DNA of 64,000 nucleotides from a virus. The position numbers were made by a program, and so were the translations under genes. The stretch lies in UHGV virus genome UHGV-0294963; one strand, given 5' to 3'. The notes beneath the pieces were generated by a model that was not told the origin of the DNA, made no database searches, and was given only the letters and a program-made list of their open reading frames with translations. Positions within the stretch are counted from its first letter, which is position 1, and each line of letters begins with the position of its first letter. This document shows positions 5,151 through 60,341 of the stretch, piece by piece.

Positions 5151-5184
5151 AGACTCGTCCTCCTTTTTAATTGATTTTAACTGT

Positions 5185-15165: not shown

Positions 15166-15232
15166 ATATAATACACCGGTAAATCAAGATAAAGAAGCAC
15201 GTCGCAGCGAAATACTGTGACGTGCTTCTGAT

Positions 15233-15268
15233 TTTGCTTAAATGCAGTGATACTGCATTACTGTTTAG
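15233..15268. repeat. family C element (TTTTGCTTAAATGCAGTgatACTGCATT hairpin)
   Basis: Shares the GCTTAAATGCA arm with the other family C copies. Confidence 0.45.
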
Positions 15269-22675: not shown

Positions 22676-22736
22676 AATGCAGGGTAGTGCGGTGTACATT
22701 ATATTATATTAAACCACTGCATTTAAGTGGCATCGG
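22676..22736. repeat. family C-like inverted repeat (GCGTAAATGCAG ... CTGCATTTAAGTGGC) around a TATAAT-rich core
   Basis: Arms flank tacattatattatattaaacc. It lies upstream (in - direction) of the LRR gene and is a candidate promoter/operator. Confidence 0.4.
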
Positions 22737-22737
22737 T

Positions 22738-22769
22738 TATAAAATAGGGCGGTTCAACCGAACCGCCCT
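22738..22769 (-). terminator. rho-independent terminator for - strand
   Basis: 10 bp GC-rich stem AGGGCGGTTC/GAACCGCCCT followed on the - strand by ATTTTATAA. It follows the stop of 22832..23230. Confidence 0.7.
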
Positions 22770-27580: not shown

Positions 27581-27592
27581 ATAATAAAAACG

Positions 27593-27672
27593 GTTTTGCT
27601 TAAATGCTGTGACACTGCGTTATACTTTACACATACGCATATCGTGCATTTAAGCAAAACCGTAGTAGTTAC
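27593..27672. repeat. family C inverted repeat, 18 bp perfect arms ACGGTTTTGCTTAAATGC / GCATTTAAGCAAAACCGT with 39 bp spacer
   Basis: Seen directly, between the dut stop and the GIY-YIG promoter. Confidence 0.6.
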
Positions 27673-33392: not shown

Positions 33393-33593
33393 TTATCCTA
33401 ATAAGTCCCAGAACTCTTTAGAAGTAATCTGGTATATCTTAGTCGAGTCATAGGCATCGGTGATGACTACCTCTCCATTCTGCTCATACATGGAAATGAG
33501 CAATCCAGTACTGTCTTTCGGGTTACCACCGACTTTGCTGTCCTGGATGCGGTTTTCTTCTTTTAGCTCACGTCGTATAGGTAAATCCTTCAT
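33393..33593 (-). CDS. hypothetical small protein
   Basis: 66 aa ORF. Confidence 0.4.
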   Translation of the reverse strand: MKDLPIRRELKEENRIQDSKVGGNPKDSTGLLISMYEQNGEVVITDAYDSTKIYQITSKEFWDLLG

Positions 33594-34455
33594 GATAAAC
33601 CCCCTCCTTGATGGGCAAGACTACAATGTCGTGATTGCAAGCAGAAGCATGGTTGTTCGCCATATCAATAAATACAGATATTTCGCTAAATTCAACCGAA
33701 CTGTTACTTATCAGCTTTAAGCCTACAGTATCTCCCCAAACGAACAAAGTACCCGCCGGTAAAGTCGAAAAGGTCTGCTTGGTACGTTCTTTGTCAGAAA
33801 TAACCTTAACCTTGATATTAGAAGAAACCGTTCTGAGCTTATAGTAATCCATATCTACAATATTAGATTCATACGCTGCAGGGTGCTTTACCCAATCACC
33901 GTCTACCCGGTTGTCTTTTATCTTAATGCCTATCAGATTATACCAGCGGAATACAGCACCTACCGGTAATTCTGAGAACGAAATATCACCCTCCCAGTCT
34001 TCCTTCAGCTTCTCGATTTCAGATTGACTCAACGGCTTCACCCACAAGTCGGTTCGAGAGGTAATTCGATGTCCGTTGTCTAAACGAATAATATTTCCTT
34101 GATGCTTGGGCGACTTATCAGTGATAATCTCATTCGTGAGTTTTCTGAACAGCTTACCACCGAAGTTAAAGATAGTGCCTACAGGGACTTTCTCGAGAGG
34201 AAGCATACCACGCATCGCCTGATATCTCTTCTTATCGATTTTGCAGCCAGGGTATGCTTTTTCGATAGCAGCTACAATTTCGGTATTTATCTGTTCGGTG
34301 TTGGTGCAACCAGAAGCAGAATACCAGTCGTCGCCTAGGAAGTAATGACATAGTTCATCAAGAGCAACCTGAGCTTTCATTGGTGGTGCAAATATACCAT
34401 AATCACCAGGTTCGCATAAACTCAAAATACGGTCTCTGTCAAATTTCTTGTGCAT
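33568..34455 (-). CDS. hypothetical protein
   Basis: 295 aa ORF. Confidence 0.5.
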   Translation of the reverse strand: MHKKFDRDRILSLCEPGDYGIFAPPMKAQVALDELCHYFLGDDWYSASGCTNTEQINTEIVAAIEKAYPGCKIDKKRYQAMRGMLPLEKVPVGTIFNFGGKLFRKLTNEIITDKSPKHQGNIIRLDNGHRITSRTDLWVKPLSQSEIEKLKEDWEGDISFSELPVGAVFRWYNLIGIKIKDNRVDGDWVKHPAAYESNIVDMDYYKLRTVSSNIKVKVISDKERTKQTFSTLPAGTLFVWGDTVGLKLISNSSVEFSEISVFIDMANNHASACNHDIVVLPIKEGVYHEGFTYTT

Positions 34456-40395: not shown

Positions 40396-40408
40396 AGTAT
40401 CAACTCCT

Positions 40409-40453
40409 TTACTGTACCTATATTATAACATATTGCGGTGTGGGTAACGAAGT
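40409..40453 (-). promoter_or_regulatory. conserved promoter element copy
   Basis: ctgtacctatattataacatattgcggtgtgggtaacgaagtt. Confidence 0.55.
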
Positions 40454-40469
40454 TGCGAAGCACCGCATA

Positions 40470-41050
40470 AGCACTCTAAAATTCCAGAATTGTCAACCGC
40501 AAGCTAGGAGTCGGGACTTCTGATATAGAAACTTTTTGCGAGAAATCGTGCTAGCAGAAAACGGTATCTAGGATTCTGGGGGTGTGGATTACCTGACACG
40601 AGAAGCTGGGCTTTCGAAATCAAGGGAGTCAAGAACCAGGGCTGGGAGACCGAGGAGTAGGGTTCGTAACCGGGAGCTGGGAGGTAGGGGTAGGGGGTAA
40701 AGGGTAGGGGATAGGGGGTTTGGATATGGAGACTTTTTGCGAAATCAGTGTCGGAGAAAAAACGTAAAAAGCGGGTCCGTAGTATCGGAATACCGTTGAA
40801 AGGTATTTCAGGACCGGTATTTTCGGGCGATTATTTTAAGGTATCTACAGCAGAACTTCGGTATTTTCCTGGTTTTGTGTTATATAACACATCTAGCAGA
40901 ACGACTCGAAGCTCCTTGCTACCAGCCTGAACCTAGCACGCTAACGCACGCTAAGGGCTTGCTGCTAGACATATGTTATACATCGTAGCTATGTTACCCT
41001 TAGCGTGCGTTGTGCTGCTATGTGCTGCTTTAGCGCTCACGAGCTCGTTG
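40470..41050. other. ~580 bp non-coding region with G-quadruplex motif, direct repeats, iteron-like GGTATTT(T)C repeats and palindromes; candidate replication origin / regulatory hub
   Basis: The G4 motif is GGGAGGTAGGGGTAGGGGGTAAAGGGTAGGGGATAGGGGG at ~40675-40715. AGCTGGG is repeated. GAnACTTTTTGCGA(G)AAATC occurs as a direct repeat at ~40528 and ~40728. GTGTTATATAACAC is a 14 bp palindrome at ~40884. CGCACGCTAAGGG/CCCTTAGCGTGCG is a perfect inverted pair at ~40940-41020. Confidence 0.5.
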
Positions 41051-41051
41051 C

Positions 41052-43573: not shown

Positions 43574-44248
43574 TTACTCTGCTACATCGAACGGGTCCTC
43601 AACCTCGTCCTCTGTAGGAGCTTCGGCTGCTGCTTTCTTTGCTGCCTTCTCGGCTTCCTTAGCAGCCTTTGCTGCTGCTTTCTCTTCTGCTTCTTTTGCC
43701 TTTGCTGCAGCCTTTTCTATTGCTTCGGGGTTTTCCCACTTGCCTGCGGTTGTACCTGCATCTATCTGCGCGATGATGTCAGTGAACTCTCTGAGCACCA
43801 ACGCTGCTTTCTCGGTAGTGTCGTGCTTTGTCTTAGCAAAACGAGCTGCGAAATCGGAAATTGTGCTTGCCATTCCTCTGAGTGGAATACCTGCTTCGAC
43901 GAACGCTCTTACGTTGCGTATATCAACAAGATTGACGAATTTATTCTCGTTGATGGTCTTGAGCACTGCCTTAGGGTCTTCGCCTGCTGCTACTGTGATT
44001 ACGTCCCAGAACATTGCGTCGTTCTTGTTACGAGTTGCTGTAATGTACAGCATTGTTCTATCCTCGTCTGCTGGAACGATGACGTCGTTGAACTTCGGGA
44101 GCTTTACCTCAGGAGCCTGAACCTCTGTAATCTCGATTGCCTCTGTGCTGTTGATAACCTCGTTTGCCATAGTAGCATCCTCCTTCTTGATAGTAGCAGT
44201 TTCGTTGATTTCCTGTACGTCTATGTTCTTAATGATTTCCTGTGCCAT
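43574..44248 (-). CDS. paralog family protein A (conserved ~130 aa C-terminal domain shared with 48092..48658 and 52552..53247)
   Basis: Start moved to MAQEIIKN; the upstream 25 codons are translated promoter. Shares LYITATRNKND...MFWDVITV...LRGMASTISDFAARF...IDAGTTAGKWENPE with the other two. The variable N-terminus is an E/T/V-rich low-complexity region. C-terminus is KAAAKAKEAEEKAAAK. Confidence 0.55.
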   Translation of the reverse strand: MAQEIIKNIDVQEINETATIKKEDATMANEVINSTEAIEITEVQAPEVKLPKFNDVIVPADEDRTMLYITATRNKNDAMFWDVITVAAGEDPKAVLKTINENKFVNLVDIRNVRAFVEAGIPLRGMASTISDFAARFAKTKHDTTEKAALVLREFTDIIAQIDAGTTAGKWENPEAIEKAAAKAKEAEEKAAAKAAKEAEKAAKKAAAEAPTEDEVEDPFDVAE

Positions 44249-44278
44249 AATATTTTCCTCCTTGAACCTTATCGGTTT

Positions 44279-44330
44279 GTGTTTTATTGTGCTTACATTA
44301 TAACATGAATACGTCTGTATCACGAAGTTG
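44279..44330 (-). promoter_or_regulatory. conserved promoter element copy (tandem 1)
   Basis: gtgttttattgtgcttacattataacatgaatacgtctgtatcacgaagtt. Confidence 0.55.
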
Positions 44331-44427: not shown

Positions 44428-44793
44428 TCAGTGACCTCTTCTGCTGAACCTATCAAAGTCTCTGCCTACCTGCCGTTTCGTTTCGTCCAACTGGTCGTCA
44501 ATCATCTTAAGAATGACTTCCTGAACGATGCGGCACACCTCGACACCTGAAGGTTTGTGCCCTAACGCAGCCTCCAGGGCATCTCTTGCTGGGATGTTCC
44601 GAGTCACACCGTCTATTGTGCAAGACATTGAAGTGTCTGGCTTCTGCTCAAAGAAGATGTTCTTGTCGTCCTCTCTGCTGTACATATAGTATGTCAGCGT
44701 GCCTCTGGCAAATGCTGCTTTTCTTATTACAAAGCCCATCGACTTCTCAAAGAAGGTTTTGAGCTGAGTATCCTTTTCGGTTACATTTCCCAT
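44428..44793 (-). CDS. hypothetical protein
   Basis: 121 aa ORF. Confidence 0.45.
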   Translation of the reverse strand: MGNVTEKDTQLKTFFEKSMGFVIRKAAFARGTLTYYMYSREDDKNIFFEQKPDTSMSCTIDGVTRNIPARDALEAALGHKPSGVEVCRIVQEVILKMIDDQLDETKRQVGRDFDRFSRRGH

Positions 44794-44813
44794 TCTGTAC
44801 CCTCCTTACCGGG

Positions 44814-44869
44814 TTGTGTTTTATTGTGCTTATATTATAACATTTCATGATTAAGAAAACGAAGTTTGA
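44814..44869 (-). promoter_or_regulatory. conserved promoter element copy
   Basis: gttgtgttttattgtgcttatattataacatttcatgattaagaaaacgaagtt. Confidence 0.55.
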
Positions 44870-44959
44870 TTTACCAAGAATGCCGTGCAGCACATTGCTT
44901 GAGGTATTATTATGCAATAAAAATACCTCGATTATGCAGTGGTTTTGCTTGAGGTAATA

Positions 44960-45045
44960 ATGTTACCAATAAAAGTATACATCGCACACCACCACACGGT
45001 ATACCGTAGCGTGCTGTGTCTGCGGTGAATACCGATAGATAGCAG
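44960..45045. repeat. family B element (CACGGTATACCGTAGCGTGCTGTGT)
   Basis: caccacacggtataccgtagcgtgctgtgtctgcgg. Confidence 0.45.
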
Positions 45046-45048
45046 TAA

Positions 45049-45120
45049 GCATTTATAGAGCTTCGAGTATCCATATGGTTTTGTGTTATATAACACATTT
45101 TACCGTGCATACCGAAGCTC
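45049..45120. repeat. ~70 bp palindromic element centred on GTGTTATATAACAC with TAGAGCTTCG / CGAAGCTCTA arms
   Basis: atagagcttcgagtatccatatggttttgtgttatataacacattttaccgtgcataccgaagctctacgaac. Confidence 0.5.
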
Positions 45121-45129
45121 TACGAACCC

Positions 45130-45156
45130 ATAATAAAAGCGGCATAAGCCGCTTTT
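45130..45156 (-). terminator. rho-independent terminator
   Basis: Stem AAAAGCGGC/GCCGCTTTT with loop ATAA. On the - strand it is followed by TTTTATTAT. It lies directly after the stop of 45158..45448. Confidence 0.7.
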
Positions 45157-45157
45157 A

Positions 45158-45448
45158 TCACTTCTTAATATGATGTCGCTTCCTAAAGAAATTCAATGCC
45201 TTGCGATATCTGCTGACATCAGCATCTATGAATCGAAGCGGTTCAGTCACCTCAACTTCGACCTCGACCTCGACGTCTGTAGACTCATCAGCATCTGGCA
45301 GTTTCGCTACCAGAGTTGAGCCTATCCTCGTCAGCTCCTCTTTAGTCCCTACCACTTCAGGAAGCCAGGTTGTAAAATCGATGATGTCTTGTGTGGATTC
45401 CCATAACCGGTACACCCGGTCAGGGGTTATTGTCTCTTTCTGTGCCAT
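45158..45448 (-). CDS. hypothetical protein
   Basis: 96 aa. Contains an EVEVEVEVTE repeat. Confidence 0.45.
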   Translation of the reverse strand: MAQKETITPDRVYRLWESTQDIIDFTTWLPEVVGTKEELTRIGSTLVAKLPDADESTDVEVEVEVEVTEPLRFIDADVSRYRKALNFFRKRHHIKK

Positions 45449-45474
45449 ATCTGTCTCCTTTATGTACTACTGGT

Positions 45475-45807
45475 TTAATCAGGTGGTAATGCTTCGACAC
45501 GACTTAACAGCTTGCGAAAATCAATTCCGTATTCCGTTTCGATATGCTTTCTGATGTCCAGGGCGTTATATGGTTGAAGCCAAGGAGCAAGCTCAGGTAT
45601 GTCGGTTAGAGACAACATGTCTTCGAATAGCTTTGTCTGTCTTTTCTGCTTCCAACCTTGAGCCATCTCTAGAACGTACATCACGAATGCCATACCCTGA
45701 ATTGCACCTTCGAGTGTTGCCTGCTGATAACGCTGATTGAACTCGTTCTGAAGCTTAGCAGCCACTACCTGTTTCAGCTGGTCCACTGTTTGTATTCTCG
45801 ATTTCAT
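45475..45807 (-). CDS. hypothetical protein
   Basis: 110 aa ORF. Confidence 0.45.
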   Translation of the reverse strand: MKSRIQTVDQLKQVVAAKLQNEFNQRYQQATLEGAIQGMAFVMYVLEMAQGWKQKRQTKLFEDMLSLTDIPELAPWLQPYNALDIRKHIETEYGIDFRKLLSRVEALPPD

Positions 45808-45961
45808 GGTGCACCTCCTTTACGTCGTAGATACGAACATCGTCATGCAAATTGAACCGCTCTCTTGCCAGCATACCAACACCTTCGAATCTTGGAGCGA
45901 GAATCTCTCCGCTCCCTGTCTGCCCGTTGCGTAAGATGTATCTAAATCTGAACTTTCGCAT
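45755..45961 (-). CDS. hypothetical small protein
   Basis: 68 aa with RBS AAGGAGGTTGC. Its 3' end overlaps the next gene. Confidence 0.4.
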   Translation of the reverse strand: MRKFRFRYILRNGQTGSGEILAPRFEGVGMLARERFNLHDDVRIYDVKEVHHEIENTNSGPAETGSGC

Positions 45962-45971
45962 AGCAACCTCC

Positions 45972-46355
45972 TTAATATCTCATGCGGATTCTGACAACAC
46001 GACCCTTCGACACCTTTCTTATGCCGCGCTCTGCCAGATAACTCATGAGCTTGTCGAGTGCGACGTAGCGAGACTCTTTGATATCGTAGTCACACAGGTC
46101 TTCACCAGACTCCTTATGAGCTTCGTAGCTCACGAATACACCCAGGGTGGTGGATCCGTCCGGATAACGGAGCATTCGGATTCCACCGAGTTTCACCTTT
46201 TTATAGTTCGCAATAGAACCCCAAACCCCTTCGTATGCGCGAAACGTACTGGGATTCTCGAGAGCGATGATACCGAGCTCTGCGAGCTGAGAAACAACCT
46301 GTCCTACAAGTGCGATATTCTTATCCATATGAGTACCTCCTAAGTAAGTGAACAA
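45972..46355 (-). CDS. hypothetical protein
   Basis: 127 aa ORF. Confidence 0.45.
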   Translation of the reverse strand: MFTYLGGTHMDKNIALVGQVVSQLAELGIIALENPSTFRAYEGVWGSIANYKKVKLGGIRMLRYPDGSTTLGVFVSYEAHKESGEDLCDYDIKESRYVALDKLMSYLAERGIRKVSKGRVVRIRMRY

Positions 46356-46403
46356 CGACTTGTTCTATTGTATCTTAATTATACAAGATTTCGGTAGTGG
46401 TTC
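46351..46403 (-). promoter_or_regulatory. conserved promoter element copy (variant)
   Basis: ttgttctattgtatcttaattatacaagatttcggtagtggttcacgaagtt. Confidence 0.5.
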
Positions 46404-46411
46404 ACGAAGTT

Positions 46412-46630
46412 TCACGTTCCTACGATAAGACCTGTGAGGTCTCCTACTTGACTGCGAGCTTCTTTAATTGCTTCGGCTTTTGCCTGAGAATAGGTTCCGG
46501 ATTTAATAATCGGATCCTCGAAATCTGTACCGCGAGTGGACACGATAAAGAATGCCCAAGTGCCCATCCCTCTAGGTCTGCGACCGTAAACCTCTTCGTA
46601 TGTGTCTGTGAAAATCTCTATCTTTGCCAT
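46412..46630 (-). CDS. hypothetical small protein (start MAKIEIF; ORF-table N-terminus MCYNIDTIKHGGIH is promoter plus RBS)
   Basis: RBS GGAGGTATTC lies before the second ATG. Confidence 0.5.
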   Translation of the reverse strand: MAKIEIFTDTYEEVYGRRPRGMGTWAFFIVSTRGTDFEDPIIKSGTYSQAKAEAIKEARSQVGDLTGLIVGT

Positions 46631-46641
46631 ATGAATACCTC

Positions 46642-46693
46642 CATGTTTTATTGTATCTATATTATAACACATTCAGACTGGGGATGCGAAGTT
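46642..46693 (-). promoter_or_regulatory. conserved promoter element copy (near-consensus)
   Basis: atgttttattgtatctatattataacacattcagactggggatgcgaagtt. Confidence 0.65.
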
Positions 46694-46931
46694 AGCAATC
46701 CTCGTCAATGATGTTACCGAACTCGTCTCTTTCGATACCGTCTTCCTCCTCGTAGCCGATAATGTAAGAGAACACCTCTTCGGCTTCTTCCTGAGTGAGG
46801 TCATAGTCAACCTGAAGCTGCGTAATGGTTGCACCTTCGTCAGTACCGTCCCAACCTTCCTCATACAATATGCGAGCTGCCTCCTTCTCGTTATTGAATT
46901 GGCAGAGTGTCTTAATATCGTTCTGTGCCAT
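46692..46931 (-). CDS. hypothetical small acidic protein
   Basis: 79 aa ORF. Confidence 0.45.
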   Translation of the reverse strand: MAQNDIKTLCQFNNEKEAARILYEEGWDGTDEGATITQLQVDYDLTQEEAEEVFSYIIGYEEEDGIERDEFGNIIDEDC

Positions 46932-46945
46932 ACTCGTGACCTCCT

Positions 46946-46996
46946 TGTGTTTTATTGTACCTATATTATAACATATCTGATGTGTAATTGCGAAGT
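46946..46996 (-). promoter_or_regulatory. conserved promoter element copy
   Basis: gtgttttattgtacctatattataacatatctgatgtgtaattgcgaagtt. Confidence 0.6.
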
Positions 46997-47006
46997 TACG
47001 CTCATC

Positions 47007-47201
47007 TTATGCCAGTGTGCTTTCGTAGTTGTGAAGAACGTGTCTTCTGAATATTCGACCGTTGTTATCCTGCTGTATAGCTCTGTTCCAAACCTGTGCC
47101 AGGTTAGCAGGCTCCGCGTAGCATTCTGCTTCGTCTCTTGCCCACTGCTTACAAGCTTTATATAGAACTACAGGATTTCCAATATTTCTCTTCTTACGCA
47201 T
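47007..47201 (-). CDS. hypothetical small protein
   Basis: 64 aa ORF. Confidence 0.45.
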   Translation of the reverse strand: MRKKRNIGNPVVLYKACKQWARDEAECYAEPANLAQVWNRAIQQDNNGRIFRRHVLHNYESTLA

Positions 47202-47226
47202 ATGAGTACCTCCTGCCCGTTTAGGA

Positions 47227-47277
47227 CTTGTTTTATTGTATCTATATTATAACACATCTAGAGTAGCATCCCGAAGT
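47227..47277 (-). promoter_or_regulatory. conserved promoter element copy
   Basis: cttgttttattgtatctatattataacacatctagagtagcatcccgaagtt. Confidence 0.6.
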
Positions 47278-47299
47278 TTCTGACACACCGGTGCTGTGG

Positions 47300-47430
47300 T
47301 TTACATGAGTACACAATACCATAAAGATACACAGCATGCGGTAGCGTGCTGTGGGTTCCGTATCATTGATATATAATTACACACCGTGCACAACCACGTG
47401 GTATACCACAGTTTGCGAGGTGGTGCTTTC
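47300..47430. repeat. family B element pair (GGTAGCGTGCTGTG ... CACAACCACGTGGTATACCACAG)
   Basis: Seen directly. Same motifs as at 52.0 and 45.0 kb. Confidence 0.5.
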
Positions 47431-47449
47431 GTAGTAGCGGTGGTAGCGG

Positions 47450-47522
47450 TAGCTCCTCGGAGCTTCGAGTTCTTCTGCTGAGCGCCTTCTATTTCTTAAT
47501 CACAGATGCGGGTGGAACTCGA
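47450..47522. repeat. repeat D (AGCTTCGAGTTCTTCTGCTG ... AATCAC ... GGAACTCGAAT), potential stem-loop
   Basis: Near-identical element at ~52090-52165. A related one is at ~53530. Confidence 0.45.
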
Positions 47523-47534
47523 ATTGCGATAGTT

Positions 47535-47568
47535 AAAAAGCGTAGAGCTCTTTCGAGCCCTGCGCTTT
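47535..47568 (-). terminator. rho-independent terminator
   Basis: Hairpin AAGCGCAGGGCTC-GAAA-GAGCTCTACGCTT has one wobble and one mismatch. On the - strand TTTTT follows. It lies directly after the stop of 47571..47969. Confidence 0.6.
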
Positions 47569-47570
47569 GC

Positions 47571-47969
47571 TTATTCCTGGTGGTCGGCAACCCAGTCTTC
47601 GACGAGCTCTCTGAGCGCCCCGTCTGCACAGTCCAGTACGCTGTCTCCGTCCTCCTCGGCCTCTTCGATAATGTCTTCGATTTCCCCGTCCTCCAGGTCG
47701 TAACCTCTGTCAGCAGCGAACGCACGCATCTTCTTGTAGACATCGTCGTATGCTTCGCTCTCGGCTTCCTCCTTGTGGTCGGCACGGTACTCCTTGGCGA
47801 AAGCTTCGGGTGAGGAATACGGACCTCCTAGGTCAAAGTCACGGCCGCCGTTGTCGTACCATTCGGTAAACGCATTGTCGAGCTCTTCGACTGACTTGTT
47901 GAATTCCTTCGACAGGTTGGTGAGTGTCTCTTCGAGGGTCTGTACCCATTTTTTAGCTTCTTTAAGCAT
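47571..47969 (-). CDS. hypothetical acidic protein
   Basis: 132 aa, D/E-rich. Confidence 0.45.
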   Translation of the reverse strand: MLKEAKKWVQTLEETLTNLSKEFNKSVEELDNAFTEWYDNGGRDFDLGGPYSSPEAFAKEYRADHKEEAESEAYDDVYKKMRAFAADRGYDLEDGEIEDIIEEAEEDGDSVLDCADGALRELVEDWVADHQE

Positions 47970-47989
47970 ACTGCTACCTCCTAATGGTC

Positions 47990-48047
47990 TGTTGTTTGTT
48001 TTACTGTACCTATATTATAACACAGCTGAAAATTGGATTACGAATTT
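47990..48047 (-). promoter_or_regulatory. conserved promoter element copy (ACGAATTTT variant)
   Basis: tgttgtttgttttactgtacctatattataacacagctgaaaattggattacgaatttt. Confidence 0.5.
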
Positions 48048-48091
48048 TCAAGTAGGGCATGGACCTTTCAGTCCCTACGCTTGCTTGGTTA

Positions 48092-48658
48092 TTAGTCTTC
48101 TGCGAGAGCTTCGGTTTCTGCTGTTTCAGGAGCTTCCTCCTTCTCAGGCTCAGGGCGTACCCATGCACCGTTGTTCTCACCATTCTCGACTGCTGTAAGA
48201 ATAGTTCCGAACACTTCGAGTGCTACTGCTACACGCTCGCCCTTAGTGTCTGTTACCTTACAGTAGCGGTTGAACACATCTGACACTGTACTTGCTGTGC
48301 CACGTACTGCTCTATGCTCTTCGACACACTGAGCAATAATGCTAAGGTCAATGTATGAAATGAACTTATCGTTGCCAATAATTTCTGCAGCCTTAGTCGG
48401 GAGTTCTATTGCACAACCCTTTACTTTCTGAGTTGCATCGTCGTCGTTGACTTCGATAACGTTCCAAGCGAGTCTTGTGTTCTTGCCACGAGATGCTGTA
48501 ACAAGAAGCATCTGCTTAGGACCAGTAGGAGCTGCGACTTCTTCGATTACTTCTGCGGTTGTGCTGATTGTGTTCTCTACCATGGTAACATCCTCCTTGA
48601 TAACTTCTACAGTGTTCTCGATTGCCTGTGCGTTCTTCTTGATGTTCTTCTTTGCCAT
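48092..48658 (-). CDS. paralog family protein B
   Basis: 188 aa. Shares MLLVTASRGKNTRLAWNVIEV...KGCAIELPTKAAEIIGNDKFISY...AVRGTASTVSDVFNRYCKVT with 52552..53247. Confidence 0.55.
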   Translation of the reverse strand: MAKKNIKKNAQAIENTVEVIKEDVTMVENTISTTAEVIEEVAAPTGPKQMLLVTASRGKNTRLAWNVIEVNDDDATQKVKGCAIELPTKAAEIIGNDKFISYIDLSIIAQCVEEHRAVRGTASTVSDVFNRYCKVTDTKGERVAVALEVFGTILTAVENGENNGAWVRPEPEKEEAPETAETEALAED

Positions 48659-48700
48659 AATATGTACCTCCTAAGTACTCTTTACCGTGCCCTATTGGGC

Positions 48701-48756
48701 GTTGTTTGTTTTACTGTACCTATATTATACAACATCTAGGTACTGTTTACGAAGTT
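48701..48756 (-). promoter_or_regulatory. conserved promoter element copy (tandem 1)
   Basis: ttgtttgttttactgtacctatattatacaacatctaggtactgtttacgaagtt. Confidence 0.55.
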
Positions 48757-48812
48757 TGTAAATCTTTCTAAATCGTGTGCTGTGGTCTACGTCTGTGTCG
48801 TTTGTTTTTGTG

Positions 48813-48867
48813 TTGTGTTTTATTGTATCTATATTATAACACTGCTAGATTTGGTTTCCGAAGTTCT
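48813..48867 (-). promoter_or_regulatory. conserved promoter element copy (tandem 2)
   Basis: gtgttgtgttttattgtatctatattataacactgctagatttggtttccgaagtt. Confidence 0.6.
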
Positions 48868-49284
48868 CAAATCTTACGCACGCTGGTGTTTGCGGTGTGA
48901 TTGTGCAGGTGTATAGTTATACGCCTAGGTTGAGTTGCGTGGTTCTGCGTGTGGTTTGCTGTGGGTATGGCGGTGTGCGTGGTTAGAATGCTGAAGTTCA
49001 GAATCGTATATAGCTAAAAAGCCGCCCGCAGGGCAAGTCCGAAACTCGTGGAACAGGCGGCCCAGGTGGGGGTCGTCGAAGACAAGATATGTTCGTCACC
49101 GATAACGGTGAGTGGTAGGTACGAAAGGTTTACCTGTCGGTGGGCGTACAGAATGGGAGCCCGGCGAACATATATTATATTGTGAGGCGTGTAGAAGATA
49201 TAGAATTGCGAATCCTGTACGAAATCAAGAGCTTCGAGTTAAGCTGCTTTGTACGATTTACACAAATTCCGTCAGAAACCGCAA

Positions 49285-49328
49285 CAAAAACCCATCGAAG
49301 TGAGGGTCTTTACTTCGATGGGTTTTGC
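49285..49328. terminator. bidirectional rho-independent terminator
   Basis: Perfect 11 bp stem CCCATCGAAGT/ACTTCGATGGG with a 10 nt loop. It is flanked by AAAAA on one side and TTTT on the other. Confidence 0.7.
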
Positions 49329-49458
49329 TTCCCGTGTGAGCTATACGAATATATGAAAACTGTGGAACAGTCGTCAGGTTGGGGGTCAGTAGCACTACTA
49401 CTATAATGATTATAACAACTCGAACGTAGAAAGTCAAGACTTTTGCTACAATTTCGTT

Positions 49459-49512
49459 ATCTTATACAAAGTACGAATAAGTACTGCAGCAATTTCTTGT
49501 ATAAGATTTTTA
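49459..49512. other. hairpin/operator candidate: perfect 11 bp inverted repeat ATCTTATACAA / TTGTATAAGAT enclosing AGTACgaataaGTACT
   Basis: Seen directly. Followed by TTTTTAATTC. Confidence 0.4.
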
Positions 49513-49615
49513 ATTCTAAGTCGAAGCACACCGGTGTTACGTTCAAATCACTCACCGCCAAAACAGACGCCTTTCGGCGCCTGCTTCGGTATATAAAACT
49601 TAGGAGATGTGAGGA

Positions 49616-50311
49616 TTACTTAAATGATGCGATAATGAATCGCTTCGAGTCTCTTGGGAATCTTGCTCCAGTCTGGAGTAGTCTTCCATATTCGTCTTTT
49701 ACGTCACAATAGACACATCTAGGGCTAACCTTAACAATGATGCAGGTGTAAACATTCGAGCCCTCACGCATCTGAATGCGATGTCCTTCTGCCTTGCCAC
49801 TATTGAGCACTTCTTTGAATCTATCCCAGAGGGCCTGCTCGGCCGCTTTATCCTTGGCAATGATTGTGTCGTATTCTTCCTTCGACGGTCGGGAAAGAAA
49901 CTTAGGAGGTGCACAGGTCTTACCAAGAACTGTGATTGGGGTTTCCTCCGCTGCAATATAGTCAATTGCCAGTTTTTCGACATCGTCCAGAACTTTGGAT
50001 AACGAGCCACCTAAGAAGCCCCAACCGTCTGATGTGTAAATGCCGCAGAGCTTCGGTACTAGATATCCGGTAAGTTTGTCGAGGTCTCTTGACGTTGCCT
50101 CGTCGCAGTTGAGCGTATACATGATGCTGGCAATTACTGGGCGAAGAGTCAAACCCTTCATATACTTCGTTGCCATCGTGTTAAGAACGTGATGGACTGA
50201 CATAAACGCTGCGACACGTTCGATACCCCATTCCTCATCTGATTTGAGCTTGTCGGCTTCGTGAACGTTGAAATTGAACCCATTCTGGGTGATGGTAAGA
50301 AATGTTGCCAT
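49616..50311 (-). CDS. hypothetical protein
   Basis: 231 aa ORF. Confidence 0.5.
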   Translation of the reverse strand: MATFLTITQNGFNFNVHEADKLKSDEEWGIERVAAFMSVHHVLNTMATKYMKGLTLRPVIASIMYTLNCDEATSRDLDKLTGYLVPKLCGIYTSDGWGFLGGSLSKVLDDVEKLAIDYIAAEETPITVLGKTCAPPKFLSRPSKEEYDTIIAKDKAAEQALWDRFKEVLNSGKAEGHRIQMREGSNVYTCIIVKVSPRCVYCDVKDEYGRLLQTGARFPRDSKRFIIASFK

Positions 50312-50344
50312 GTGCTACCTCCTAAGGACTGTACCTGTGTGGTA

Positions 50345-50395
50345 CTGTTTTATTGTATCTACATTATAACACGACTGAGGAGCGGATTCCGAAGA
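50345..50395 (-). promoter_or_regulatory. conserved promoter element copy (CCGAAGATT variant)
   Basis: ctgttttattgtatctacattataacacgactgaggagcggattccgaagatt. Confidence 0.5.
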
Positions 50396-50404
50396 TTTAT
50401 ACAC

Positions 50405-50470
50405 GGTATGGCTTAAATGCACGCAACGCAAATGTATAAACATATGTGCAAAGTAAGCAAAACCCAGCAG
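50405..50470. repeat. family C-like element (GGCTTAAATGCA ... TGTATAAACA ... AAGTAAGCAAAACC)
   Basis: Seen directly. It is followed by a CCAGCAG...CTGCTGG hairpin. Confidence 0.4.
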
Positions 50471-50509
50471 CTAGGCCCCCAGAATCGGGAGCCTCTGCTG
50501 GTAGCACGG

Positions 50510-50791
50510 TTACTTGATTTTAACCGTGCTGTATGGAGTTTCCTTGGTAAACTTCGCTGCGAGTCTCGGGTGTGCAGCTCTGAATTCCTCAGCATTGATG
50601 GACCTACGAACTGCTTCTGTAATAGTAACGCTGTGAACACCAGCTGTCACTGTCTTTGAGGGCTCTGCAGCTGCGAATGCCTTGAGCTCTGCTTTGATAG
50701 CATCTGCTTCCTTTGCGATAGCGTCTGCTTCTGCTTTGAGCTTGAGGTACTCTACGATTTTTTCTTTTAGATTCTTCTTTGTAACTGCCAT
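50510..50791 (-). CDS. hypothetical protein
   Basis: 93 aa, Ala/Lys-rich and helical. Confidence 0.45.
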   Translation of the reverse strand: MAVTKKNLKEKIVEYLKLKAEADAIAKEADAIKAELKAFAAAEPSKTVTAGVHSVTITEAVRRSINAEEFRAAHPRLAAKFTKETPYSTVKIK

Positions 50792-50821
50792 ACGATTACC
50801 TCCTAAAGTAACTGACTTGGT

Positions 50822-50873
50822 TTATGTTTTATTGTATCTATATTATAACACATTAAGGTGTGATTTACGAAGT
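50822..50873 (-). promoter_or_regulatory. conserved promoter element copy
   Basis: tttatgttttattgtatctatattataacacattaaggtgtgatttacgaagtt. Confidence 0.6.
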
Positions 50874-50894
50874 TATGAGTTAGTGGTGTACCAC

Positions 50895-51392
50895 TTATTT
50901 GCGGTACACATGGTCCTTATGCTCTTCGATGAACGCTTCGAGTTGTTTAATAGTACCTAGCTTATCTTCAAGCTGCCTAATAGTACCCAGCTCACCGTTC
51001 TCGTTCTTGCCTTTCCAGTCCCAATTGCCATCCTTGTCTGTAACGTCCCAGTAGCGGTATGAAGGAGTGAAGCTTCGGTAAAGTGTTGGACATCCGCTCG
51101 GACTATAACCTTCTGGTGTGAAATCTGCAGTATGTGCCCACATACCGTTAGCACAGCCTTTAGCTCCAACCTTAAAGCATACATAACCGGTGTAGCCGAG
51201 CTTAATAGCTTCACTGAGGAACTGACGCATCTCCTGTAGTTTCGATTTGCTCAGATAATCAGTCCACCAATCAAAAATGCTGAGCTCATTGCAGACGCTC
51301 TGGGTACGAAGCCTACCGGGATATCTTTCTAATAAATCTTCTACTCTGTCGAGTACGTCCTGTGCGTTACATCTGAATTCCTTGTTTTCCAT
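50895..51392 (-). CDS. hypothetical protein
   Basis: 165 aa. Has a short internal repeat GELGTIRQLEDKLGTIKQLEA. Confidence 0.45.
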   Translation of the reverse strand: MENKEFRCNAQDVLDRVEDLLERYPGRLRTQSVCNELSIFDWWTDYLSKSKLQEMRQFLSEAIKLGYTGYVCFKVGAKGCANGMWAHTADFTPEGYSPSGCPTLYRSFTPSYRYWDVTDKDGNWDWKGKNENGELGTIRQLEDKLGTIKQLEAFIEEHKDHVYRK

Positions 51393-51422
51393 ATATCTTA
51401 CCTCCTAAGTAACTGTCGGGCT

Positions 51423-51473
51423 TTGTGTTTACTGTACCTATATTATAACATATGCCAGGTGGCGTTACGAAGT
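51423..51473 (-). promoter_or_regulatory. conserved promoter element copy
   Basis: tttgtgtttactgtacctatattataacatatgccaggtggcgttacgaagtt. Confidence 0.6.
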
Positions 51474-51487
51474 TATCAATTTAGGGC

Positions 51488-51847
51488 TTAATAGCCCATA
51501 CCCTTGACAACCGCTTCGGCACACTCGTGAATGTACGCCTTGCCAGCGAATGTGTAGTGTTTCTGGTAAGCCTGCTGGGGACCTTCGATACCACAACCGT
51601 AATAGCCAGTCATGCACATAAACTCGATTTCGTCTACCAGCTCGTCGTGGTTGCTAAGAGACGCCTTGGCATCGATGTATTCCTCGTCAGCTTCGTCGTA
51701 GTCGCACAACGTGTTTTCAAGACCTCCGATGAGACTGCAGCCGGCGTAATACATATTAGCGAGAATCTCACGTTTACGGTCGTCGGTTGCCTTGATGGTT
51801 TTTACAAACTGCTGAGCCTCATGAATTTCTGTTCTTGGTCTATACAT
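51488..51847 (-). CDS. hypothetical protein
   Basis: 119 aa ORF. Confidence 0.45.
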   Translation of the reverse strand: MYRPRTEIHEAQQFVKTIKATDDRKREILANMYYAGCSLIGGLENTLCDYDEADEEYIDAKASLSNHDELVDEIEFMCMTGYYGCGIEGPQQAYQKHYTFAGKAYIHECAEAVVKGMGY

Positions 51848-51871
51848 AAGCTACCTCCTAAGTGCTATGTG

Positions 51872-51926
51872 GTTATTGTTTTATTGTACCTATATTATAA
51901 CATACTCAGAATAGGTAAACGAAGTT
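51872..51926 (-). promoter_or_regulatory. conserved promoter element copy
   Basis: ttattgttttattgtacctatattataacatactcagaataggtaaacgaagtt. Confidence 0.6.
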
Positions 51927-51949
51927 TCAGCATTACGGTGTGCGTGATG

Positions 51950-52085
51950 TACAAGACATTGGATTCTTAATATAGCAACACGCACGCTAAGGTTTTGCTG
52001 TGGATACCGTGTGTATGGTTATAACTTATACGTGGTGCACAACCGTGGTGTAAACCACAGCGTGCTATGTCTGGTACAACCAGCC
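51950..52085. repeat. family B element pair (CACGCACGCTAAGG ... CACAACCGTGGTGTAAACCACAGCGTGCTATGT)
   Basis: Seen directly. Confidence 0.5.
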
Positions 52086-52089
52086 AGCT

Positions 52090-52165
52090 GGTGGTATCTA
52101 CATAGCAGCTTCGAGTTCTTCTGCTGCATTTGATTGGTTTTTCAATCACGAACTGCAGTGAAACT
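52090..52165. repeat. repeat D copy (AGCTTCGAGTTCTTCTGCTG ... AATCACGAACTGCAGTGAAACTCGAATGTGCGG)
   Basis: Matches the 47450-47522 copy. Confidence 0.45.
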
Positions 52166-52185
52166 CGAATGTGCGGTATACCACA

Positions 52186-52210
52186 ACAAAAAGCGGGACT
52201 CTTGCCCGCT
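52186..52210 (-). terminator. rho-independent terminator
   Basis: Stem AGCGGG/CCCGCT with loop ACTCTTG. On the - strand it is followed by TTTTTGTTG. It lies after the stop of 52228..52512. Confidence 0.6.
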
Positions 52211-52227
52211 CGGTATTTCGATTAGAT

Positions 52228-52512
52228 TTATCTGCCCCAGCCTTTCGCAAGGAATGATTGAACTACCTTGTCTTCGACTCCTGCGTCTTGAACTGCCTCG
52301 ATTACAGCAAGTAGATATTCGTGTTCGTCGGAAAAATCGTTCTGTTTGTATAGAGTTAGCAAGTCAGGAAGTTTCGAAAACGACGTAACTTTGAGAATTG
52401 CCTTATCTGGTTGATATCTCTGAAATTTATCTGTAGCTTCGGCTTCACTGTCTGCGTAGATTATCGTAAAATCGTTTGTACCTTTGCCCCAATATACTCT
52501 ATAACGCTCCAT
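52228..52512 (-). CDS. hypothetical protein
   Basis: 94 aa ORF. Confidence 0.45.
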   Translation of the reverse strand: MERYRVYWGKGTNDFTIIYADSEAEATDKFQRYQPDKAILKVTSFSKLPDLLTLYKQNDFSDEHEYLLAVIEAVQDAGVEDKVVQSFLAKGWGR

Positions 52513-52551
52513 GATGTACCTCCTTCGAGTTGATTAGTTCGTTCGGATGAA

Positions 52552-53247
52552 TTACGCTGCCTGGATGTCTTCGATTGCTATGCTGTCAACCTGGTCGTCA
52601 CCTTCCTCAGGAGCTTCGGTTTCCTGAGGACGCTCCCATCCACCGTTAGTGGTACCTGCTTCGATTTCTGCAAGGACCTCACGGAACACGTTATACACGG
52701 TGTTAACCTTATCTGCACCTTCGAGCTCTGTTACCTTGATGTAACGATTAAACACATCTGAAATTGTGCTTGCCATACCACGTACTGGCTTACCTTCGGC
52801 AACAAACTTCTCGACGATGTCCTGATCAAGCCAAGACACAAACTTGTTTGTGCCAATAGCTTCGGCAACCTGAGTTGGGAGGAGTGCTGCGCAGCCCTTA
52901 ACTTTAACAGTTTCGTCTGTTTCGGTAACCGGAATCTGGAACCATCTGAGGAATGTAGACTTGCCACGACTTGCAATGAACAAGAGTGTGTTCTTCGGTC
53001 CCTGTGCTTCCTCGAGTGCGTCGACCTCTGCCTGTGCTTCTTCGAGTGTTTCGATTGCTTCTACTACCTCTGTGTAAACGTTCTTCTCTGCCATATCTTT
53101 ATCCTCCTTAACAAATTCGGTTGTGATGTCGTTACCATTACAAGTTACAGACACGATTCCTTTGAGTGCCTTAACTGCTTTCTTGTTTGTGAGTGTCTCT
53201 ACAGTGCCGTTTGTGAGAGTTGCGATGTATGTATTCTTCTTAGCCAT
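52552..53247 (-). CDS. paralog family protein C
   Basis: 231 aa. The C-terminal 130 aa domain is shared with 48092..48658 and 43574..44248. Confidence 0.55.
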   Translation of the reverse strand: MAKKNTYIATLTNGTVETLTNKKAVKALKGIVSVTCNGNDITTEFVKEDKDMAEKNVYTEVVEAIETLEEAQAEVDALEEAQGPKNTLLFIASRGKSTFLRWFQIPVTETDETVKVKGCAALLPTQVAEAIGTNKFVSWLDQDIVEKFVAEGKPVRGMASTISDVFNRYIKVTELEGADKVNTVYNVFREVLAEIEAGTTNGGWERPQETEAPEEGDDQVDSIAIEDIQAA

Positions 53248-53290
53248 AATATGTACCTCCTAAGTACTCTTTGGTGCGTCCCAGTGGGAC

Positions 53291-53341
53291 TTGTTTTATT
53301 GTATCTACATTATAACACACACGCCCACGCAAAAAGAAGTT
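53291..53341 (-). promoter_or_regulatory. conserved promoter element copy (tandem 1; AAGAAGTT variant)
   Basis: cttgttttattgtatctacattataacacacacgcccacgcaaaaagaagtt. Confidence 0.5.
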
Positions 53342-53380
53342 GTGCGTTTTCTGCACCCAGTGTGTCTTTTGCTGTTCTGT

Positions 53381-53436
53381 GTTGTGTTTTATTGTATCTA
53401 TATTATAACACTGCCAGACGTGGGTTCCGAAGATAA
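53381..53436 (-). promoter_or_regulatory. conserved promoter element copy (tandem 2)
   Basis: gtgttgtgttttattgtatctatattataacactgccagacgtgggttccgaagat. Confidence 0.55.
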
Positions 53437-53507
53437 GGTACACCCAGAATAGTTACGCATATTATAATGAACGTGCGCGCACGCGATTAACACAGAAGAG
53501 GGTTAGG

Positions 53508-53555
53508 ACTCGAAGCTCAGATGGCTATAGCTTTCTTTCTGAGCTTCGAGTCCTT
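53508..53555. other. large perfect hairpin GGACTCGAAGCTCAGA / TCTGAGCTTCGAGTCC (16 bp arms, 16 nt spacer)
   Basis: Seen directly. The arm sequence is related to repeat D (AGCTTCGAGT). Confidence 0.5.
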
Positions 53556-53617: not shown

Positions 53618-53675
53618 AACTTCGTGATTTGTATATGAGACTGTTTATAATGTAGATACAGTTAAACAACTTCGT
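53618..53675 (+). promoter_or_regulatory. conserved promoter element copy in + orientation
   Basis: + strand reads aacttcgtgatttgtatatgagactgtttataatgtagatacagttaaaca. This is the same architecture as the - strand copies but inverted, and it faces the small + strand ORF. Confidence 0.5.
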
Positions 53676-57773: not shown

Positions 57774-58529
57774 TTAGACAGTTTCTGCCGAGTCATTACG
57801 CTCACCGTCTTCAAGCTTGTCAACATCCTTAGCACGGCGTCTAACATTATCATGGAATTGCTTATAACGCTGATTGTATTCATCAGCGTCAATCGATGTA
57901 AATTGCTCATCGACTTCTTTGAAGTACCAATTCAGAACTTCAACCTTACCATCTGGGCACTTAACTGACTTGATTTCCATGGTGTCGAATTCACCAGGTA
58001 TACCGCTGACTGCGAAGTCGAACGCACTGACATAATATCTACCTGTAGGCCAATAAGGCATCTCGATAGGGTACATTTCAGAAATCTTTCTTGATACAAA
58101 GCCATTCGTCCAGCAGGTACCGGCACTATTCGTGCATACGACACGTTCTACGTCACTAAATGTAGCCTCGCCAGTCTTCTTGTCAACATCCTTGAACAGA
58201 GAGTGACAACGCTTGCATTGATACGTTGCTACATCATCAGTTTCGTGAATCAGGTTCCAGGATTCTGGTACGTCTTCGATAGGTGTCAGCGGATAACCAT
58301 CAAGCAGTCTCTTAAGAATACCTCGAGTTACGCCGAAGCTGTACCCGCTGTGCTTGTCTTCCATCAGTGACTTGTAAGCCTTAAGAGCGCTAGCATAGCA
58401 ACCTCCTGCGTACTGCTTACCCATCTCTTTCATATCTTCGTCTGTCTCTTCAGGGTCATTTTCTATGGCAGCGGTTTCACGCTTTAGTGCCAATTCAACT
58501 TCTTTTTCTGCCCATTCGGTCATACTCAT
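57774..58529 (-). CDS. hypothetical protein
   Basis: 251 aa. Has a CKRCHS...C...C cluster. Confidence 0.5.
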   Translation of the reverse strand: MSMTEWAEKEVELALKRETAAIENDPEETDEDMKEMGKQYAGGCYASALKAYKSLMEDKHSGYSFGVTRGILKRLLDGYPLTPIEDVPESWNLIHETDDVATYQCKRCHSLFKDVDKKTGEATFSDVERVVCTNSAGTCWTNGFVSRKISEMYPIEMPYWPTGRYYVSAFDFAVSGIPGEFDTMEIKSVKCPDGKVEVLNWYFKEVDEQFTSIDADEYNQRYKQFHDNVRRRAKDVDKLEDGERNDSAETV

Positions 58530-60092: not shown

Positions 60093-60235
60093 CAGTCTCA
60101 TCTCCTTTCTAGAAAAATAATGGCGGGTATATCTAGCATTACCCGCCTTCGAGTACTTTGGAGGTTTTCCTATGGCTTGGGAAAACTGACCGGAAGCTAG
60201 AATCCGAAGAGATGTGGGCTTGGGAAAGCCCTGGT

Positions 60236-60306
60236 TGGGGCAGCGGGATTCGAACCCACGGAATGACAGAGTCAAAGTCTGTTGCCTTACCGCTTGGCTA
60301 TGCCCC
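60236..60306 (-). tRNA. tRNA-Gln (anticodon UUG)
   Basis: The revcomp reads GGGGCATAGCCAAGCGGTAAGGCAACAGACTTTGACTCTGTCATTCCGTGGGTTCGAATCCCGCTGCCCCA. The anticodon arm is ACAGA-CTTTGAC-TCTGT with U33 and A37. The T-arm is GTGGGTTCGAATCCCGC. The acceptor stem is 6 of 7 paired. No encoded CCA. Confidence 0.7.
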
Positions 60307-60341
60307 AGCAAGAATCCCAGTAGAACTGGGATAGATAAAAA

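Follow-up and report, generated by a model that had tools for sequence, protein, structure and literature searches.

Repeated intergenic cassettes with a mirror-symmetric promoter look-alike at putative transcription-unit boundaries of an uncultivated large phage

Composite cassettes that join a promoter to a stem-loop are known from T4-type phages, in which these PeSL elements are regulatory and shuffle orphan open reading frames (ORFans) (Arbiol et al. 2010, PMC2839356; Comeau et al. 2014, PMC4122927). In these myoviruses, PeSLs also give rise to recombination mini-circles. Bacterial genomes, in turn, contain symmetric bidirectional promoters, in which a single -10 element is shared and a -35 element lies on either side (Warman, Grainger and colleagues; PMC12825309, PMC10268837). 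Here we analyze a 64,000-nt stretch (the window) of the uncultivated large phage UHGV-0294963, in which three intergenic modules repeat one order along the - strand: a terminator (T1), a dyad that resembles a promoter on both strands (repeat D), a group of near-palindromic sites (family B) and an early promoter. Two Bacillus phages provide additional points of comparison: phi29, in whose early/late switch region dimers of protein p4, together with p6, act at promoters A2c, A2b and A3; and SPO1, which has a host-takeover module and an HU-like protein, TF1, that binds preferred sites at early promoters.

Searches of about 50,000 records of cultured phages, in near and distant modes, revealed no DNA similarity to the window. 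Its terminase, which is not T4-like, has its nearest counterparts in the Bacillus phages SP-15 and vB_BceM-HSE3 (~40% identity). Using pattern and protein scans, we recovered syntenic relatives (~67-88% DNA identity) with genomes of ~135-166 kb: (i) from IMG/VR, six long viral contigs (135-166 kb) and one contig of 38.8 kb; and (ii) from metagenomes, eleven loci, of which one and an IMG/VR relative are a single 162,085-bp contig. In a more distant relative, the flanking genes can be aligned at just ~68-76% identity. The cassettes stand at matching positions in at least 10 related phage or metagenome contigs (loci are cited by L numbers where needed). Pfam and PHROGs returned nothing informative for the ten proteins around the modules, the neighbours being ORFans.

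Between 27.5 and 62 kb, the window contains 27 copies of a long early promoter, AACTTCGt-N13-aTGTGTTATAATATAG(A/G)TACAATAAAACA, and nearly every small - strand gene in this interval has a copy in front of it. Scored against the sigma-70 consensus, its -10 is the perfect extended consensus TGTTATAAT, while the -35 position is occupied by AACTTCG. Three gaps in this region (44.8-45.16, 47.2-47.57 and 51.85-52.23 kb) are unusually long and nearly equal in length (364, 369 and 380 bp). As they can be aligned from end to end, with a mean column identity of 69%, they are paralogous copies of one ~370-bp cassette. The order of elements reported for these sites by the first-pass annotation was recovered at, or within a few bases of, the positions it gave, as follows (X denotes the right arm of repeat D, ACTCGAAGCT; promoter scores are in bits).

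45131-45157, - strand: module 1, terminator T1, a hairpin and then a T run (-20.4 kcal/mol, z -6.0), after gene 45158-45448
45057-45121, unstranded: module 1, intact D, with AGAGCTTCGGTAT in 24-nt geometry to TGTGTTATATAACACA (45082-45097) and the X box ACTCGAAGCTC (45068-45058)
44983-45018, unstranded: module 1, B block CACAGCACGCT-ACGGTATACCGT-GTGGTGGTGTGCG, in which ACGGTATACCGT is a 12-bp palindrome
44810-44868, - strand: module 1, early promoter AACTTCGT-N-TGTTATAATATAAGCACAATAAAACA (32.6 bits), predicted to drive gene 44428-44793
47535-47568, - strand: module 2, terminator T1 (-18.9 kcal/mol, z -4.7), after gene 47571-47969
47459-47526, unstranded: module 2, D, with left box AATTCGAGTTCC, degenerate centre TCTGTGATTAAGAAATAGAAG and X box 47470-47461
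47382-47412, unstranded: module 2, B block CTGTGGTATACCACGTGGTTGTGCACGGTGT, with overlapping palindromes GTGGTATACCAC, ACCACGTGGT and GTGCAC; invariant in 7 orthologues
47318-47354, - strand: module 2, second hairpin and T run, CACAGCA(C/T)GC-loop-GC(A/G)TGCTGTG-TATCTTTAT, terminator-like and containing AGCGTGCT
47222-47280, - strand: module 2, early promoter (36.4 bits), predicted to drive gene 47007-47201
52186-52211, - strand: module 3, terminator T1, the weakest of the three (-13.8 kcal/mol, z -2.3), after gene 52228-52512
52184-52173: module 3, B-type palindrome GTGGTATACCGC, right after T1
52105-52172, unstranded: module 3, D, with left box CATTCGAGTTTCAC, the centre replaced by TGATTG-AAAAAC-CAATCA (a different hairpin) and X box 52116-52107
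51980-52070, unstranded: module 3, B region, with CATAGCACGCTGTGGTTTACACCACGGTTGTGCACC and an inverted second B1 site CTTAGCGTGCGTG (51992-51980)
51870-51928, - strand: module 3, early promoter (36.4 bits), predicted to drive gene 51488-51847

Each T1 consists of a G+C-rich hairpin followed directly by a T run and is located after a stop codon, the anatomy of an intrinsic (Rho-independent) terminator; a pattern scan also detected two of the three. In module 1, T1 can also be read as a terminator on the + strand, and in module 2 the stem is preserved in relatives although the bases differ on both of its strands. About 250 bp separate terminator and promoter, with D, X and the B sites in between, and all orthologues keep 189-202 nt between X and the promoter that follows. 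A predicted terminator on the upstream side and a predicted promoter on the downstream side give the sites the layout of the transcription-unit boundaries that they had been proposed to be. Small open reading frames inside the modules (e.g., 44910-45110 and 51967-52149) were rejected as coding sequences: they lack ribosome-binding sites, and their orthologues carry indels of 10-12 nt.

The three full modules noted previously are not the only copies, as a degenerate one and an inverted one are also present:

49230-49335, - strand: fourth, degenerate module, comprising the terminator of a putative small RNA (49335-49278), a remnant palindrome TTTGTGTAAATCGTACAAAG and an X box (49239-49230)
40852-41023, + strand: inverted D+B unit, with GAACTTCGGTAT in 24-nt geometry to TGTGTTATATAACACA (40876-40891) and an X box (40904-40913)
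40931-40957 and 40997-41023: the inverted pair of B1 sites of this unit

The degenerate module is located ~60 nt upstream of the promoter of a second putative small RNA. The unit at 40.9 kb is conserved in L003, L004, L009, L010, L083 and L085, and, because it is inverted as a block relative to the genes, D+B appears to be self-contained and independent of orientation. It lies in a 656-bp non-coding region (40396-41051) that also contains GGTATTTTC repeats, with GGTATTT(T)C repeat units and hairpins just to the left of the inverted D element. A tract of ~70 nt within this region (40.69-40.76 kb) is C-rich on the - strand, and the resulting run of G tracts on the + strand could form a G-quadruplex. 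The left flank is kept in relatives, several of which have 130-200 bp inserted after X.

Cassettes of this general kind, composite promoter-terminator elements that insulate ORFan units and mediate their shuffling, are already known. As in the PeSL system, promoter and terminator motifs recur here between small ORFans in a hyperplastic early region, where they would insulate neighbouring units, and, as detailed below, the cassettes lie at indel boundaries among relatives (an extra gene in L001, gene 51488-51847, and module 1 itself). However, a PeSL is a compact motif whose stem-loop lies inside or directly beside a promoter of sigma-70 consensus (-35 TTGACA, -10 TATAAT and an AT-rich upstream region), five subclasses being distinguished by the position of the stem-loop, whereas here terminator and promoter are ~250 bp apart, the cassette is about five times longer, and the gap holds a symmetric promoter look-alike, an invariant X and palindromic B sites. 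Furthermore, the -35-type box is AACTTCG rather than TTGACA, and the phage, judged by its terminase (~40% identity to those of SP-15 and vB_BceM-HSE3), is not T4-like. What is different here is thus the length, the mirror-symmetric promoter mimic, an almost unaltered 11-nt motif and the palindromic sites, in an unrelated lineage with an unusual -35-type box.

The two copies of repeat D at 47526-47459 and 52172-52105 have common arms, ATTCGAGTT(C/T)CAC and CAGCAGAAGAACTCGAAGCT. They had been listed separately from a palindrome at 45.05 kb; both are present, but since the "loop" of D in relatives is TGTGTTATATAACACA, we conclude that they are one element at different stages of decay. The ancestral dyad can be written as [A(A/G/T)(C/T)TTCG(G/A)GT]-spacer-TGTTATATAACA-spacer-ACTCGAAGCTC, that is, two CTTCG "-35-type" boxes facing a shared palindromic extended -10, TGTTATATAACA. 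On both strands, the distance from the start of the box to TGTTATA is 24 nt (±1 nt in a few copies), which is the spacing of the 27 real promoters. Copies in which the shared -10 is flanked in this way by boxes at promoter spacing, i.e., intact ones, are found in the window at 45.1 and 40.9 kb, and among relatives in their versions of modules 2 and 3 (L064 and L066 in the distant relative). When a weight matrix computed from 25 real promoters was used to scan 128 kb, the best matches outside promoters were halves of D elements: 40852 on the + strand (16.6 bits), 45121 on the - strand (15.6 bits; module 1, the second-best such match in the window) and 40915 on the - strand (12.7 bits). The -10 hexamer is TATATA on both strands (TATCTA in some relatives), with the A at -11 present and an A instead of T at -7. 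By its sequence, D is two promoter front halves joined at a common palindromic extended -10.

Decay of the centre is reflected in the distance from the left box to X, which is quantised: 48-49 nt where the centre is intact and 53 nt where it has decayed, as in modules 2 and 3 of the window. Intact centres persist elsewhere, a module 2-like D in the distant relative L064 having ATGTTATATAACACAT, and the module 3 orthologues in L005, L008, L058, L065, L066 and L077 retaining TGTGTTATATAACACA.

Element D therefore resembles the bacterial bidirectional promoters in having one -10 region common to both strands and a -35-type box on each side at promoter spacing, an arrangement that could allow RNA polymerase to bind it in either orientation. 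In the bacterial promoters, each -10 has A at -11 and T at -7, and the divergent start sites are ~10-23 bp apart. It differs from them in that its centre is a perfect 12-bp palindrome, giving TATATA on both strands and lacking the T at -7; in that the X box is far more conserved than the box of any real promoter; and in that some copies have lost the centre while their boxes persist.

We determined that X occurs in seven exact copies in the window, all of them intergenic and located at 40.9-53.55 kb, where ~0.1 would be expected. In a de novo k-mer count of intergenic DNA from which the promoters had been masked, X ranked second only to the ribosome-binding site, with 7 copies compared with at most 3 in shuffled sequence. 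Its 9-nt core, ACTCGAAGC, gave 73 distinct flanked matches at 25 loci, a few of the matches being within coding sequence, and the next two bases are nearly always TC. X is invariant in nearly all of these 73 copies, including those of the distant relative, while the arm opposite it varies (AACTTCGGTA, AGCTTCGGTA, ATTCGAGTT, GGCTTCGAGTT) without matching changes in X.

Two X boxes pointing apart also form a palindrome at 53.5 kb, where the first-pass annotation had placed a hairpin close to the inverted promoter copy; it is indeed present, with arms of 17 nt. The features of this interval are:

53505-53554, unstranded: palindrome AGGACTCGAAGCTCAGA ... TCTGAGCTTCGAGTCCT, with perfect 17-nt arms (53505-53521 and 53538-53554)
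53618-53669, + strand: the sole + strand copy of the early promoter, AACTTCGT-N14-TGTTTATAATGTAGATACAGTTAAACA
53461-53490, - strand: host-type promoter-like site TTAATC-N18-TATAAT, identical in L001, L005, L008 and L058

The palindrome, which folds at -30.7 and -32.1 kcal/mol, is located between two tandem - strand promoters and the + strand promoter. In relatives, one of its arms changes from AGCT to ACCT without a compensating change in the other. As X is invariant while its left arm varies, and as this AGCT to ACCT change is uncompensated, X is probably recognised as a sequence rather than as a pairing partner. The spacer of the host-type site contains a perfect 12-bp palindrome, CGTGCGCGCACG, that includes the family B half-site GCGTGC, so that this site looks like an operator inside a promoter. 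A Spo0A box or a cre site was considered as an identity for X and dropped, since X differs from both at key bases.

The third part of the cassette, ~190 bp in length, holds the near-palindromic B sites (AGCRYGCT; GTGGTATACCAC, GGTTGTGCAC). Of these, AGCGTGCT occurs at 45008, 47343 and 52059, and GTGGTATACCAC at 47398, with variants in the other two modules. Dyad-symmetric sites of the type used by dimeric DNA-binding proteins, as previously suggested for these modules, are thus present, and B-type sites were confirmed outside them at 2.3, 15.1 and 40.9 kb. The expectation that the motifs would be enriched over shuffled sequence was borne out for X and, more modestly, for AGCGTGC (19 copies versus 6.4 +/- 2.5 expected), while for TAGCGTGC enrichment is marginal (6 copies against a shuffle maximum of 5). 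AGC(GT/AC)GCT has 8 copies, of which 7 are intergenic.

As in phi29, inverted-repeat sites suited to a dimeric regulator are found among close, partly divergent promoters (compare the 53.5-kb interval), and they could set temporal classes of genes. There is, however, no sequence or protein homology between the two; the sites here are dispersed in many copies, unlike the one control region of phi29; and no p4- or p6-like protein was identified.

The dyads are long and capable of forming cruciforms, and the phage encodes an HU/IHF-family DNA-binding protein (5261-5536, - strand; PF00216, E 5.6e-31) inside its structural-gene block, a candidate binder of such dyads. Together with the position of one copy, at 40.9 kb, in a non-coding region with GGTATTTTC repeats and + strand G tracts, this allows the cassettes to be read as sites of other DNA transactions: replication origins or primer-promoters, cruciform targets of the HU-like protein in genome compaction, or partition or packaging signals. 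We consider this very improbable, since 13 kb hold at least five copies, each of them placed between a terminator and a promoter, and their geometry is that of a promoter and not of an iteron array. Origins in particular are disfavoured by the lack of a GC-skew inflection at any module and by the Pfam and PHROGs searches, which identified no replication initiator among the proteins adjoining the modules.

The HU-family protein is also part of a general likeness to SPO1, another large phage with a block of many small early genes in short units that each have a strong promoter and a terminator, the host here being presumed to belong to the Firmicutes. No DNA or protein similarity to SPO1 was found, however, and that phage is not known to have a symmetric promoter look-alike or X motif.

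The structured appearance of repeat D had led to the proposal that it encodes a small structured RNA. On such a reading, D would be an active promoter or T1 would be leaky, X would lie at ~+8 to +18 of the transcript, and the ~190-nt leader with the B hairpin would be a small RNA or a cis-acting leader (in antitermination, stability or processing) that either ends at the second terminator, in module 2, or runs into the next gene. Several observations are in agreement with this. In its forward half, D combines an acceptable -35-type box with the correct geometry, and it forms a long hairpin in module 1 (-30.5 and -29.7 kcal/mol on the two strands, z about -7.5) and in module 3 (-24.7 kcal/mol, z -4.0), where the centre has been swapped for a different hairpin. 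Furthermore, a B hairpin of 10-11 bp is predicted in 15 of 15 copies (-11 to -17 kcal/mol), two of its pairs occur both as G-C and as A-U, many are G.U on the gene strand, and the second hairpin and T run of module 2 are kept in 7 orthologues.

Against this, the fold of D in module 2 is no better than that of shuffled sequence (z -0.9), and X is conserved by sequence while its supposed partner varies uncompensated. Covariance analysis did not reveal an RNA: RNAalifold on 15 paralogous and orthologous copies gave -14.3 kcal/mol, of which the covariation term contributes just -1.39 (no useful covariation), and the seven module 2 orthologues show no compensatory change in any of the 40 pairs predicted for them. 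The module 2 second hairpin likewise lacks compensatory change, and in the window it folds at only -14.7 kcal/mol (z -1.1); a second terminator is not conserved in modules 1 and 3. Folding energies show no consistent preference for sense over antisense, the antisense strand being the more stable one when whole module 3 copies are folded, and likewise for the B block of most copies of module 2. Finally, no module matched Rfam at the gathering score or at E <= 1, the sole match in the window being a tRNA-Gln elsewhere. An RNA-level element is, in our estimation, rather unlikely, and the earlier proposal of a small structured RNA is not upheld: D, which reads as a promoter look-alike, does not appear to be primarily an RNA gene.

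Two putative noncoding RNA genes are encoded nearby (49000-49440, - strand). The first, with a near-consensus promoter at 49437-49409 (TTGACT-17-TGTTATAAT) and a strong terminator at 49335-49278, shows high conservation in every relative, the most distant one included; the second begins after CCTCACAATATAAT, and its end is at a terminator (49036-49022). Both contain the motif GACCCCCA(A)CC...CTGTTCCAC, and neither has a match in Rfam. The small-RNA promoter at 49.42 kb has an X-like box in its spacer; being window-specific and unconserved, this box was dropped.

Comparison with relatives indicates that the cassettes are maintained by selection. Their identity to orthologous cassettes is 0.79-0.89, while for the flanking genes it is 0.53-0.72 at third codon positions and 0.85-0.92 at first and second positions. 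Because they are more conserved than the third codon positions beside them, the cassettes are under purifying selection. Conservation is block-wise, X, the B palindromes and the hairpins being invariant while the linkers vary.

The cassettes and promoters are also located at the boundaries of gene-cassette insertions and deletions between related genomes. In L001, the closest relative, module 1 is separated from the next gene by an extra gene of 105 codons (18549-18866). Two copies of D, identical to each other over ~60 bases (ending ...ACTCGAAGCTC), flank this gene, as do two copies of the downstream promoter. Conversely, gene 51488-51847, which lies between two promoter copies, is absent from L001. 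Further gains, losses and replacements of gene cassettes relative to L001 break at early promoters, and not only at the long modules (window 51451-51851 versus L001 11363-11413; L001 14826-15379 and 16142-16773).

The second gene upstream of module 2 and its counterpart upstream of module 3 are paralogous (46% identity), and gene 43574-44323 is a third copy (36%). This three-member family (43574-44323, 48092-48658 and 52552-53247, - strand) has tandem early promoters upstream of two of its members, an orthologue of 82% identity in the closest relative, and no match to a Pfam or PHROG family.

Such observations would also be expected if much of the cassette were evolutionary residue, with only the terminator and the regular promoter functional, D the product of head-to-head recombination of promoter copies, and D, X and B persisting without a function of their own in recently duplicated, PeSL-like scaffolds. 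The indels are bordered by duplicated D and promoter sequence, module 1 is missing in two relatives, the centre of D has decayed in two copies in the window, and the paralogous genes upstream of modules 2 and 3 point to segmental duplication. We nonetheless judge this explanation unlikely, as it does not account for cassettes that are clearly more conserved than the third codon positions of adjacent genes, nor for the block-wise pattern, with X and the B palindromes invariant and the spacers variable. Moreover, the paralogous cassettes are only ~60-70% identical to one another, yet each is stable across at least six diverged genomes, and X is invariant in nearly all 73 copies, even where the flanking genes are only ~68-76% identical.

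Building on the homology among the copies, the purifying selection, the promoter geometry and the position at indel boundaries, we tentatively favour a DNA-level boundary or control element that also provides homology for recombination; with each functional step read from anatomy, we would put this at slightly short of an even chance. The terminator would end the upstream transcription unit. Element D would then bind RNA polymerase holoenzyme, or a factor reading the CTTCG box, in either orientation, and would be either a weak promoter in both directions or a trap or roadblock that holds polymerase unproductively. The B palindromes would serve as operators through which a dimeric phage or host protein tunes the downstream promoter, and the regular early promoter would restart transcription. 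In addition, the cassettes may serve modular gene shuffling as regions of homology, a role that PeSLs have in T4-type phages.

Several findings weigh against this boundary-element reading. The -10 of D lacks the -7 T that sigma-70-type factors normally need, so that D may not fire at all. Modules 2 and 3 have lost the central palindrome, and yet their arms and the new centre are conserved across six genomes, which a pure promoter model does not predict. The spacing within the B block differs between paralogues (GTGG-N4-CCAC versus GTGG-N6-CCAC), which suits hairpins better than a rigid site for a dimer, and the several B-hairpin pairs that are G.U on the gene strand, together with the conserved second hairpin of module 2, hint at transcription. 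In addition, module 1 is dispensable, being absent from L004 and L006.

A more speculative version, which we regard as quite improbable, is that the AACTTCG box of all 27 promoters and the X box (ACTCGAAGCTC, i.e., AGCTTCGAGT) are read by a dedicated phage or host factor and not by sigma region 4, in a manner resembling sigma appropriation. On this view, D would be a double promoter built not to fire: by trapping RNA polymerase behind each terminator, it would work as a programmable insulator or timer. If true, this would represent a new class of promoter-mimic decoy in phage genomes.

Outside the cassettes, the late/structural part of the window contains a separate intergenic motif, TGCATTTAAGCA(A/G)AA, often as an inverted pair (5150-5260, 15230-15250, 22690-22760 and 27590-27650), in a part that is essentially without early promoter copies; it may be a late-promoter or regulatory motif. 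The window also encodes an NAD-dependent DNA ligase (28754-30478), a radical SAM protein (30918-31679) and a tRNA-Gln with anticodon TTG (60232-60307). Matches to the Thoeris inhibitors Tad3 (PF25185, E 4e-23) and Tad8 (PF25189, E 3e-12), at 57774-58529 and 33568-34455 (- strand), suggest that the promoter-rich region carries anti-defence genes. A search of GTDB bacterial genomes for the combined D and X pattern, aimed at assigning a host, gave five matches, all of them due to chance and without the phage promoters.

If the boundary-element reading holds, the early, anti-defence-rich gene block of this lineage would consist of insulated units split by cassettes that mimic promoters and resemble operators. 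This would extend the PeSL idea, in which a regulatory cassette doubles as a recombination handle, beyond the T4-type phages, and would show a symmetric promoter serving naturally as a boundary element. In practice, metagenomes can be screened for this phage group, and its transcription units delimited, with the X motif and the promoter consensus as sharp markers.

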